From a virus (lineage: Duplodnaviria > Heunggongvirae > Uroviricota > Caudoviricetes): DNA of 64,000 bases. A model generated the notes under the pieces. That model did no database searches. It saw only the letters and a program-made list of their open reading frames with translations, and was not told the DNA's origin. Location of the stretch: positions 1 to 64,000 of IMG/VR virus record IMGVR_UViG_2778261179_000006. One strand, written 5' to 3'. Positions 2,832-31,385 of this stretch are shown here, in pieces. The position numbers were made by a program, and so were the translations under genes. How positions within the stretch are numbered: the first letter of the stretch is position 1; the number at the start of each line of letters is the position of its first letter.

Positions 2832-4422
2832 TCTCTTGGCCCTCTTCGCAGATTTTCACAACTTGTGCTACCGCCGATATCACTTCGTCGAGTTGAATCC
2901 CTAGGCGAGCATTTTCGTATTTTTCAAGTCGCTCTGTCCGACTCGCCAATAGGCAATCCAACACCTGCTCATGATCGGCATGTCGATAGGGCTGAAATTT
3001 AGGGCATAAATAGCAAGAGTATGGTGGGTCGAGGTGGCAAACGCTAGATTCTCCACAAACGCCGATATCGGACTGTACCGTCGGATTTTGTTCGTCAACA
3101 AAGATTAGGTGTTTGTCGTCACGATCACCATTGACAGCCTCAATATCGCTATCGACTACTTTACCTTTGAAAAAGTTTAGGTAATTAGACAAGGCTTTTG
3201 TGGTTGCCTTATCAAGGTGCTCAACAATTCTGCCAGCCATTTCAAAATAAACCTGCACATGCTGGGTATCGGTATGATCGAGAATCCTCGCCAGCTCACG
3301 CTTGCTAATTCCCTCAACTGCTAACCCTGTCGCAAGCGTATACCGCAGTCTTCGGGGGGTAACGTGCATCAATTCACCGGTAAGTGGGGAAATTAGATTG
3401 TGTCGTTTGATAAAGCCTCTGATGAGATTAGCTATACCTGTCGACATCATATTGAAGGCGTCATCCCAACGCTTCGACTCTAATGCATAAGAATTTTCGG
3501 TTGGTTTAATAAACAAAGGTCTCTCGATTTCTCTAACACTTCCATCAGCATCAACCACTAGCTTTTTATGTTGCGAAGCGTTGATAAGCGCCACTAGGTG
3601 TTTGGCAATATCCGGTTCCAAATATTCATCCACCATATCGTCTCTTGGCGCTAGTTGCCTCTTTTTAATTCTGGGCATTCGTAAAATATAGCAAGGTGAA
3701 TCGGAATCAGGCGTCAGGTTAATTAAGTCCGTTTCTTTTAGAAAAGTTAGGTTAGCTGGATTTCTTCCGAAAGCAATTGAAAGAGCTATAGCCGCCTTCT
3801 GTTGCAGGTGCTCATACTCCATACTGTTGTCTTGCTTTAACGTATTGATTATGAGTTGAAGCTCAAGAGTTCTATGAAGAGGTCCTCTATCAGGATCTTC
3901 TTGTCTAACTGCCTCCCCTTTTGGATTTCCCGGAATTTCCATCGCTTCTAACTCGTGAGCATAAATCTCCGAAAACCCAAATTCTGGGTAGTTTTCCGCG
4001 CACCAAATATACCACTGTATTGGTCTATACAATGCCCAAAGGCGGTGCCTTTTACGAGCTTCATTTATTGCGGCTTCCATCACCGCAATTAAACGTAATT
4101 CAAGATCATCAATGGAAAGATCGGAGACGAGGGAATAATCGGTCTGTTTCGAGAAAATTGCGGCAGATATATCACTCCAATATTGCACTCCAGCGTGCGA
4201 TGACACTCGCGTCGCTTGATCAATAATACAGCTTTTTACTACAACTTTAAGAGTGCCGCTTTGGATGCGAGAGAAGTCGAGCCGACTGTGTCGATATAGC
4301 AAGGGCAACACCCAAACATCTCCAGCACTCTCAACCTTAACACCCTCACGAGTAAAAAAAGTATCAGGTAAATTCAGCCTAGAATCATTATTATCTCTAG
4401 CTTGTTGAAGCAACTGGTTCAT
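2824..4422 (-). CDS. tyrosine recombinase (second of trio)
   Basis: 532 aa; RRLRYTLATG ... LDHTDTQHVQVY motif arrangement typical of integrase-family catalytic domain. Confidence 0.75.
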   Translation of the reverse strand: MNQLLQQARDNNDSRLNLPDTFFTREGVKVESAGDVWVLPLLYRHSRLDFSRIQSGTLKVVVKSCIIDQATRVSSHAGVQYWSDISAAIFSKQTDYSLVSDLSIDDLELRLIAVMEAAINEARKRHRLWALYRPIQWYIWCAENYPEFGFSEIYAHELEAMEIPGNPKGEAVRQEDPDRGPLHRTLELQLIINTLKQDNSMEYEHLQQKAAIALSIAFGRNPANLTFLKETDLINLTPDSDSPCYILRMPRIKKRQLAPRDDMVDEYLEPDIAKHLVALINASQHKKLVVDADGSVREIERPLFIKPTENSYALESKRWDDAFNMMSTGIANLIRGFIKRHNLISPLTGELMHVTPRRLRYTLATGLAVEGISKRELARILDHTDTQHVQVYFEMAGRIVEHLDKATTKALSNYLNFFKGKVVDSDIEAVNGDRDDKHLIFVDEQNPTVQSDIGVCGESSVCHLDPPYSCYLCPKFQPYRHADHEQVLDCLLASRTERLEKYENARLGIQLDEVISAVAQVVKICEEGQENV

Positions 4423-29986: not shown

Positions 29987-30006
29987 AGCGTTTTACCTCA
30001 ATGATA

Positions 30007-30022
30007 CTGTTTATTCATACAG
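30007..30022. promoter_or_regulatory. LexA (SOS) box
   Basis: CTGTTTATTCATACAG fits CTGT-N8-ACAG. Confidence 0.75.
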
Positions 30023-30109
30023 TATACATTGAAAAGGCATAGTTTGTGAAAGCGGGGTTTGTAGGCGCGCCACGCTGGGGGCTAATCACATTTCTCCCCC
30101 ATCTTGCCG

Positions 30110-30382
30110 TTATTTTTTTGGTGCATCCTCGTTCTGATACACCGGATCGCTCCCTTTTGGCAACCGGAGGTTTAACTGCCGATAGTGCCGTAACCGTTCC
30201 ATGAAATAGGTGCGCAGATTCTCTGGTTGCTCGCGGGCTACCTGTTCAGCTATGACAGGTATGTTCAATCGCTCTTTGTACGCCACACCGCTGGCAGCCA
30301 GATCAACGTTAACCTTATCCCGTTCTTCCTGACTTTTAGCTGCAATATTCCAATCGTGCATATCAAATCCCATCCAGAACAA
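30110..30382 (-). CDS. hot: Hot, homologue of DNA polymerase III theta subunit
   Basis: [43 protein letters not shown] resembles HolE/theta; real start probably the internal ATG at 30361. Confidence 0.7.
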
Positions 30383-30810
30383 TTGCGTAACGACTATTAT
30401 TTAACCAGCAAAGTAACTTTTAATTTTTTTTCTTTTCCCATTGATTTTTGTGCACAGCTTATCTGCCTTGCCGTGCACAGAATCAACTTTTTTCTTCCTG
30501 ATTTATCCACAAAGTTATGCACTTGCAAGAGGGCCATTTTCTAAATATTGTGATGTTTCACAAATGAAATGAATTTTGATTAATGAAGATAAGGAGAAAA
30601 TTTGAGATGCAATCATGACGTTAATAGATAGGGTCTGCATTACAGACCCCATCCGCATCAAGGAATTAGCCGTTCCCTGATGTTGTTCCGAAAACATGTG
30701 CCGTAAGCTCACGTTAACGACTTTCTTTCACCGAATCCAACTATATAGGGGTTGGGTTTCTACGTCAACGTGAGCAAGTGCTCCTTTACATTTGACAAGG
30801 AACCACCTTA

Positions 30811-30948
30811 ATGACTGCTTTTTTTCAGTTCCTGAGTGCATTTTTAGATGCGCCTGTTATTAGCCAGATTCTGGCGATCATCCTCATCATCGTTTTGATT
30901 TTGCTTTTAAGGTCAGTAAAAAATGGAATTATGCACTGGCTTACTTAA
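30811..30948 (+). CDS. candidate 45-aa single-pass membrane peptide
   Basis: ATG with AAGGAA SD 8 nt upstream; MTAFFQFLSAFLDAPVISQILAIILIIVLILLLRSVKNGIMHWLT; too short for the ORF track. Confidence 0.3.
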   Translation: MTAFFQFLSAFLDAPVISQILAIILIIVLILLLRSVKNGIMHWLT

Positions 30949-31022
30949 TGTTCAGTGAAACATTAAAATCTCCTTGATGTGGAAACAATCATTTTCTGTA
31001 TGTGCTGGTGGGTACCTGTAGT

Positions 31023-31385
31023 TCAGCTTTCGTTGGCATTTAACTTCGTCTTTGCTTTCTCCACCAGCAACTTCCAGATGCCTATTTCATTAGCAGCCGC
31101 CTTGATGGCGGCATAAAAAGCATCTTGCTGATCGTAACGCTGAATCTGTTTTTTCAGTTTTGCCTCCACCAATTTAATTTCATTACGTGCTTTCTGAAGC
31201 CGCAGCGCCGCCCGGTTACGTCTGTTCTTGTATAGCGCGTTAATCTCTGATAATTGCTTTAATTTACCAGCCTGACTGCGGATTATCGCCTCTCTGACTT
31301 CTGCCGTGCGTCTCATCTGATCTCTTAAGAGTTCACCGTTTTCGATAATTCTTTCAAGGTGTTTGATGTGATCTGCAACTCTCAT
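31023..31385 (-). CDS. hypothetical coiled-coil protein
   Basis: 120-aa ORF, start of a long minus-strand operon. Confidence 0.4.
   Translation of the reverse strand: MRVADHIKHLERIIENGELLRDQMRRTAEVREAIIRSQAGKLKQLSEINALYKNRRNRAALRLQKARNEIKLVEAKLKKQIQRYDQQDAFYAAIKAAANEIGIWKLLVEKAKTKLNANES

Follow-up and report, generated by a model that had tools for sequence, protein, structure and literature searches.

We examined a 640-bp stretch (positions 30383-31022) of a 64,000-nucleotide viral DNA, positions 1 to 64,000 of IMG/VR record IMGVR_UViG_2778261179_000006 and here called the window. The stretch shows the sequence features, conservation pattern and fold statistics of a compact sense/antisense arrangement. 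On the plus strand, an open reading frame (ORF) for a 45-residue hydrophobic peptide lies behind a conserved leader and a predicted promoter resembling that of host nrdA; on the minus strand, a conserved promoter-like sequence precedes a strongly folding segment opposite the leader. We tentatively read the 640 bp as a type I toxin-antitoxin (TA)-like module travelling with P1-type phage-plasmids. This reading is ranked first because of the geometry, a predicted antisense RNA opposite the 5' untranslated region (UTR), and because the peptide has generic type I toxin features. The original prediction for this DNA had held that a membrane peptide antisense to flanking transcription is type I architecture. 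The conserved ORF, promoter, leader and opposite-strand promoter and fold agree with it, but neither the peptide nor the RNA matched a toxin or small RNA (sRNA) family, coding constraint was modest, and both partners are predictions.

The window is a P1-like (IncY) phage-plasmid. Its 640-bp stretch is 98.8% identical to positions 85917-86557 of bacteriophage P1 (AF234172), and many IncY P1-like plasmids of E. coli and Salmonella match it at 99.8%. The module was found only in P1-type elements across phages, plasmids, IMG/VR, metagenomes, complete E. coli genomes and 1.84 billion protein representatives. Its copies form three clades: the window and P1, a P7-like clade ~92% identical over the stretch, and the RHB27 clade, ~77% identical. 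It occurs in 216 of 5,426 complete E. coli genomes (222 of 223 copies on plasmids), and a 21-mer from its leader had no match in species-representative genomes.

Sequence features of the two strands

The features discussed below are as follows, numbered along the window.

30427-30541, plus strand: copy of the E. coli nrdA upstream region, 94/115 positions identical (82%) to K-12 2344627-2344741, plus/plus
30503-30511 and 30515-30523, plus strand: two DnaA boxes, TTATCCACA (perfect) and TTATGCACT (8/9), invariant in all clades
30523-30551, plus strand: predicted sigma70 promoter read from the sequence, -35 TTGCAA (30523-30528), 17-bp spacer, -10 TATTGT (30546-30551), start at ~30558
30558-30810, plus strand: predicted 5' leader (~250 nt) preceding the coding region in the peptide mRNA; conservation within the stretch peaks in the leader core, 30610-30775
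30591-30618, plus strand: Shine-Dalgarno (SD) sequence AAGGAG (30591-30596) and mini-ORF ATG CAA TCA TGA (30607-30618), a start-stop ATG TAA in the RHB27 clade
30811-30948, plus strand: ORF of the 45-residue membrane peptide, MTAFFQFLSAFLDAPVISQILAIILIIVLILLLRSVKNGIMHWLT, with SD AAGGAA at 30797-30802, 8 nt before the ATG
30768-30740, minus strand: sigma70-type promoter, the predicted "PupfN" of P1, TTGACG (30768-30763), 17 bp, TATAGT (30745-30740), start at ~30733, 10/12 matches to consensus
30620-30733, minus strand: predicted structured RNA forming three stem-loops and antisense to the leader of the peptide mRNA, 3' end undefined
30627-30653, either strand: GC hairpin GGGTCTG catta CAGACCC, core 30631-30637/30643-30649 extendable to these limits, 13 bp on the minus strand through G.U pairs
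30656-30682, either strand: second hairpin, CATCAAGGAA / TTCCCTGATG, with 10 contiguous pairs on the minus strand and an A x C mismatch on the plus strand
30707-30775, either strand: large imperfect inverted repeat enclosing the minus promoter, outer arms 30707-30719/30763-30775, inner arms 30734-30742/30750-30758, almost invariant
30450-30457 and 30473-30480, either strand: two copies of GTGCACAG, 15 bp between them, within the nrdA-derived segment

The plus-strand promoter is predicted to be the ORF's own, of sigma70 type and captured from host nrdA. The copied segment spans the upstream elements to just past the -35 hexamer; its K-12 counterpart ends 124 bp before the nrdA ATG, and the homology stops ~17 bp before the nrdA start site (about -17). 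P1 records annotate an nrdA-like promoter and a DnaA box here, oriented along the window plus strand, and describe the nrdA-like segment as 94% identical to the E. coli DnaA-box region. Both DnaA boxes (consensus TTATNCACA) lie directly upstream of the nrdA-homologous -35/-10 pair, the sequence arrangement of a DnaA-regulated nrdA-type promoter, and the two predicted hexamers are in the same register as those of E. coli nrdA. The -35 was invariant. For the -10, the window, P1 and P7 clades have TATTGT and the RHB27 clade has TACTGT, except for one member (L021) with TACCGT. Compared with the E. coli nrdAB promoter, the P1 version has the same two DnaA boxes, the same -35 and equal spacing to a -10-like hexamer, but its -10, transcribed region and product are unrelated and no nrdA 5' UTR follows downstream. 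A second copy of the DnaA-box-like 9-mer TTATGCACT lies at 30929-30937 inside the 3' end of the peptide ORF and is altered in the RHB27 clade.

The predicted leader stood out in the comparison with the RHB27 clade. Its core differed at 16 of 166 positions (9.6%), against 31 of 138 (22.5%) in the ORF (Fisher p = 0.002) and 29 of 101 in the left flank (Fisher p = 9e-5). With flanks at ~30%, the core is thus 2-3 times less diverged than the ORF and flanks, and just 2 of its 16 differences fall in 30691-30775. The plus-strand leader folds with z = -2.4. Near its start, the AAGGAG and mini-ORF at 30591-30618 are possibly a ribosome standby or loading site, judging by their sequence. A mirror-image SD with a 3-codon ORF (AAGGAG ... 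ATG TTT CAC TGA) is found on the minus strand at 30975-30952. Two further plus-strand leader ORFs, of 21 and 25 residues, were rejected as peptides since their replacements were mostly non-synonymous.

A 45-codon plus-strand ORF with an AAGGAA ribosome-binding site and a single-pass membrane product had been proposed, and the ORF, the SD and the hydrophobic helix are all present. Mean Kyte-Doolittle hydropathy is 3.0 over residues 14-33, which are followed by R/K, as fits a single-pass membrane peptide. The peptide also has the features of type I toxin proteins, namely fewer than 70 residues, one predicted transmembrane (TM) helix and a polar/aromatic C-terminus (RSVKNGIMHWLT after the helix). 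The very same ORF has been called independently by PGAP (WP_000123562.1) and, as gp107, in the annotation of phage JL22. Its ATG, its SD with the spacing, its length and its stop are kept in all three clades, and it is the only ORF of the stretch preserved across them in the phage, plasmid, IMG/VR, metagenome and E. coli collections. The RHB27-clade peptide has 60% amino-acid identity at 77.5% DNA identity, with all helix replacements hydrophobic for hydrophobic. The ratio of non-synonymous to synonymous change (dN/dS) was 0.45 on 31 changes and 0.18 on 5 changes. Under simulated neutral change, 44% of copies kept the ORF open, and 4% also kept as few replacements together with as hydrophobic a helix.

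At least five independent natural variants change only the 3' end of this ORF (~30900-30948; L085-L088, P0001-P0004) and spare the helix. IS1 has inserted twice, once at ~codon 37 and once close to the stop; two others are frameshifted, at ~codons 34 and 38, and in one a recombination breakpoint falls at codon 31. Chance, IS1 target preference, sequencing error or relief from a harmful product could each account for them.

On the minus strand, no clade departs from either hexamer of the promoter at 30768-30740, and every alignment column is constant over 30753-30772, where the -35 lies. The predicted RNA 30733-30620 has a minimum free energy of -43.8 kcal/mol (z = -5.43), and none of 200 shuffles was as stable. 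Over the 134 nt 30600-30733, the minus strand reaches -45.8 kcal/mol (z -3.8) versus -32.4 (z -2.25) for the plus strand. This gap arises because nine of the 39 predicted minus-strand pairs are G.U, which become A x C mismatches on the plus strand. The GC hairpin of the original prediction is real, with its coordinates (30633-30652) 2-3 nt off. In the RHB27 clade it carries a compensatory T-A to C-G change at 30634/30646, and a T-to-C change of P1 at 30652 retains a G.U pair on the minus strand only. In the second hairpin (30656-30682), clade differences are confined to the loop.

A proposed type I toxin-antitoxin-like module

Read as a type I TA-like module, the nrdA-derived promoter (DnaA boxes, TTGCAA, TATTGT) would drive a plus-strand mRNA from ~30558, consisting of the ~250-nt conserved leader with its SD and mini-ORF and then the coding region of the 45-residue membrane peptide. 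The minus promoter (TTGACG-17-TATAGT) would yield a folded RNA from ~30733, perfectly complementary to the leader down to at least ~30620. Antisense pairing would take place with the 5' UTR well upstream of the peptide start, in the geometry of ldr/rdl or timP/timR. It could block ribosome loading, perhaps at the SD and start(-stop) of 30591-30618, and/or trigger cleavage of the peptide mRNA. DnaA at the promoter might further gate peptide synthesis. What we infer from the sequence is that the two transcripts exist, that the ORF is translated into a toxic product, and that the antisense RNA and DnaA exert control.

Known type I loci share a set of traits: a protein of fewer than 70 residues with one TM helix and a polar/aromatic C-terminus, and an sRNA gene marked by a local minimum of folding energy, a signal used to locate such genes (Fozo et al. 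2010, PMC2887945). In K-12, rdlD occupies the strand opposite ldrD, 49-112 nt before the ldrD start; the corresponding distance of the predicted antisense RNA from the ORF start is 78-191 nt. The module further resembles ldr/rdl in its small single-helix peptide (35 residues in Ldr, 45 here), long predicted 5' UTR, putative antisense gene opposite the 5' UTR upstream of the peptide start, ~0.5-kb unit apart from neighbouring genes, and a short local resemblance, L.APVI..ILA. It differs from ldr/rdl in having no significant homology to Ldr and no Rfam rdl match, in being single copy on a phage-plasmid instead of a chromosomal tandem repeat, in its DnaA-box promoter, and in its predicted antisense RNA, which is longer, with three stem-loops and without a clear terminator.

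A second comparison is with tisB/istR-1, zorO/orzO and timP/timR, in which the toxin has a long structured 5' UTR and the sRNA acts ~100 nt upstream of the toxin RBS at a standby/loading region. The P1 module likewise has a conserved strong SD and start(-stop) ~200 nt upstream of the ORF. It differs from these systems in that there is no sequence or Rfam similarity to them and in that the P1 promoter has DnaA boxes instead of a LexA box.

Several results weigh against a TA-like module. Coding support for the 45-codon ORF is modest, at p ~0.04-0.06. The peptide gave only chance TM matches in Pfam and NCBIfam (E <= 10) and nothing significant in PHROGs or PADLOC. Membership of the Ldr family, suggested by a resemblance, was rejected: the Pfam Ldr model was silent at E <= 10, BLASTP aligned a 15-residue hydrophobic patch, and hhalign against LdrA-D gave a probability of 7%. 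Rfam searches (E <= 1 over 3.5 kb; E <= 10 over 651 bp) returned only chance matches far below gathering scores, such as BsrG at 15 bits against a threshold of 55. No canonical intrinsic terminator was found for the minus-strand RNA, so it may be a long transcript and not an sRNA. The covariation test of the minus-strand fold yielded one compensatory pair, matched by 103 of 500 shuffles, and with only three shallow clades it was underpowered. The structural claim rests on thermodynamics and strand asymmetry, not covariation, because these clades leave covariation statistics empty. A pairing of the leader with the start codon as a translational lock, predicted by RNAalifold, was rejected, as its duplex energies were no better than those of shuffles. 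Recombination among mosaic plasmids, instead of selection, could have kept leader divergence low. In the literature on the locus, we found nothing beyond the non-essentiality of upfM, upfN and upfO (see below), and none on a peptide module.

The paired octamers add nothing to the TA idea either. The original prediction had pointed to paired palindromic octamers 15 bp apart; both GTGCACAG copies and their spacing were confirmed, and the palindrome is limited to the GTGCAC core. GTGCACAG is the sole direct repeat in the 640 bp, with 5 copies in the window against 2.3 expected, and the two copies also make a 13-nt imperfect inverted repeat (30446-30458 with 30470-30482). P1 has GTGCGCAG in place of the second copy, and neither copy has its window sequence in P7 or in the homologous region upstream of E. 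coli nrdA. Because P1, P7 and E. coli all fail to conserve the pair, we assign it no function.

The relatives of the peptide were sought more widely by homologue search, full HMMER against 1.84 billion representatives, plasmid tblastn and a degenerate-pattern metagenome scan, which returned the same three clades and C-terminally disrupted copies only. One mosaic IMG/VR contig (L024) is P7-like to ~30590 and window-like beyond, placing recombination breakpoints within the 640-bp stretch.

Setting in P1 and rival explanations

The minus strand runs through pmgV (31023-31385), the 640-bp stretch, hot (30110-30373), humD, phd and doc. Hot is a phage homologue of the polymerase III theta subunit. 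P1 records annotate in the stretch LPhot with its mapped start, the hypothetical minus-strand ORFs upfO, upfN and upfM, and several predicted sigma70 promoters:

30396-30419, minus strand: LPhot (former LPr91), late promoter of hot, P1 annotation transferred via the 98.8% identity
30411-30419, minus strand: -22 box of LPhot, AAGTAACTT, with the -10 at 30396-30401 and the mapped P1 start at ~30387; motif position read from the sequence
30397-30537, minus strand: upfO, P1 annotation
30515-30712, minus strand: upfN, P1 annotation
30728-30841, minus strand: upfM, P1 annotation

The window and P1 do not differ over the LPhot coordinates 30396-30419, and the -10 and -22 box stand at the P1-mapped position, as in an Lpa-dependent late promoter. 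The peptide proposal was to fall if this were a conserved P1 segment with a known non-peptide function. That holds in part, and counts against the TA-like reading: the LPhot late promoter and the annotated nrdA-like promoter and DnaA box occupy the left end, but they cover only ~160 of the 640 bp. The claim that no ORF of 60 codons or more runs in the operon direction stands with one exception, upfN (30515-30712, minus strand), which has 65 residues from a GTG start. The P1-predicted promoters P1upfM and P2upfM were left out of our feature list for their weak hexamers and, in P1upfM, a -10 lost in the RHB27 clade.

Among the rivals to a TA-like module, the strongest, which we consider somewhat unlikely, makes the peptide a harmless accessory ("moron") small membrane protein that the lysogen produces from a promoter of host type. 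The minus promoter would then be the lysogenic sigma70 promoter of hot, the folded RNA the 5' leader of hot mRNA, and any antisense effect incidental. According to the summary in PMC7556043 of Chikova & Schaaper 2007, expression of P1 hot is not confined to the late phase but also occurs in lysogens and early in lytic growth; therefore a non-late minus-strand promoter upstream of hot must exist. Within the 640 bp, conservation leaves the promoter at 30768-30740 as the sole candidate, with no terminator between it and hot. Small membrane proteins are, moreover, mostly not toxins, and the peptide is without toxin homology. Yet in the P7 clade, which has no hot gene close by, promoter, fold and ORF persist at 96% identity, so the module is not merely the upstream region of hot. 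Nor does this account make sense of a leader better conserved than the peptide that follows it. It is also not exclusive with a TA-like module, as a single minus transcript could serve as hot mRNA while also opposing that of the peptide. A composite of the two, in which a membrane toxin gated by DnaA (the host replication-initiation state) and an antisense RNA doubling as the lysogenic hot mRNA leader form a type I TA module that couples prophage-plasmid maintenance or defence to host replication status, strikes us as quite improbable.

Two further explanations are less likely than the TA-like and hot-leader readings. One, improbable in our judgement, dispenses with the peptide: the stretch would be purely regulatory DNA and RNA (late and lysogenic promoters of hot, an nrdA promoter relic and a structured RNA), and the ORF a chance product of T-rich sequence, which readily yields hydrophobic ORFs. 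The share of neutrally mutated copies that keep the ORF open (44%), the weak dN/dS of 0.45 on 31 changes, the location of the strongest nucleotide-level constraint outside the ORF and the several natural copies with an altered 3' end (IS1, frameshift, recombination) all favour this. The ATG, the SD with its 8-nt spacing, the stop and the helix with its basic tail are nevertheless kept at 77.5% DNA identity, and the combined simulation gives p ~0.04; helix replacements are all hydrophobic for hydrophobic, the natural disruptions all spare the helix, and gene callers pick the ORF. The other, to which we give very little credence, takes the P1 reference at its word, with upfM, upfN and upfO as small genes of the pmgT-to-hot operon and the stretch as ordinary coding sequence. 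AF234172 lists all three, later P1-like records have taken them over, and upfM has its own PHROG family. In the RHB27 clade, however, upfM is cut to 12 codons and upfN to 9, and the ends of upfN and upfO vary in P7. None of the three matched Pfam or NCBIfam, and PGAP calls none. upfO merely overlies nrdA-like promoter DNA, and the upfM PHROG consists of P1-type copies of the same DNA only.

The three upf ORFs are probably not genes. Both upfN and upfO are non-essential for lytic growth by CRISPR interference (CRISPRi) and by the deletion survey cited in PMC10695390; upfM, which has no protospacer adjacent motif site and was left out of the CRISPRi, is non-essential by the deletion survey cited in PMC10695390 alone. 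P1 UpfO and E. coli K-12 YpaB (b4605) are versions of one ORF (L060 595-738, minus), both over homologous nrdA promoter DNA, and in P7 the first 32 UpfO residues are nearly identical to YpaB. UpfO resembles YpaB because upfO overlies nrdA-like DNA, and both may be spurious ORFs over a promoter.

Significance and related loci

P1 ranks among the oldest model phages, and E. coli and Salmonella frequently harbour P1-like phage-plasmids, often with resistance genes. The P1 segment itself has been known for decades, and what we describe is not a categorically new kind of system. What is new is the conserved coding potential on the strand opposite to the reference annotation, which lists minus-strand ORFs and omits the 45-codon ORF, and a predicted noncoding leader that, with its antisense promoter, is the most constrained element. 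Were the module a TA pair, a second system for addiction or defence would stand only 0.9 kb away from phd-doc, its toxin of a new family and its promoter unusual in having DnaA boxes. On a more modest reading, one small plus-strand gene plus an antisense promoter should probably take the place of upfM, upfN and upfO in the annotation, and the promoter behind the unexplained lysogenic expression of hot may have been located (30768-30740).

Beyond the stretch, lxr is missing from the window, where 123 bp separate hot and humD compared with a 573-bp plus-strand lxr in P1. The LexA box TACTGTTTATTCATACAGTA (30005-30024, within 29987-30109) is retained despite the lack of lxr.

The nrdA-like promoter also occurs in SSU5-like phage-plasmids (phage Cyrano, L061 2376-3176; L062, L063), at 73-75% identity and adjoining a humD homologue. 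It looks like a recombination joint between the P1-type and SSU5-like phage-plasmid families because the left flank of the P7 clade (a LexA box and a humD 5' remnant; L089 1547-2000, L004 1-1500) resembles Cyrano/SSU5-like sequence. A more extended homology between the window and the SSU5-like locus was rejected, as the promoter segment alone is shared and the downstream sequence differs. In the SSU5-like elements the promoter sits in a ~800-bp stretch with no gene annotated in two of the three records, and the third (L062) calls one 80-residue plus-strand ORF. At the Cyrano locus, a transcript of ~75 nt would follow the promoter, ending in a strong intrinsic terminator (~2709-2737), and further on lies a 27-residue hydrophobic ORF, MVNLLFKIVPPMFAIIKAIIEYVNQRP (3039-3122), with a terminator of its own.

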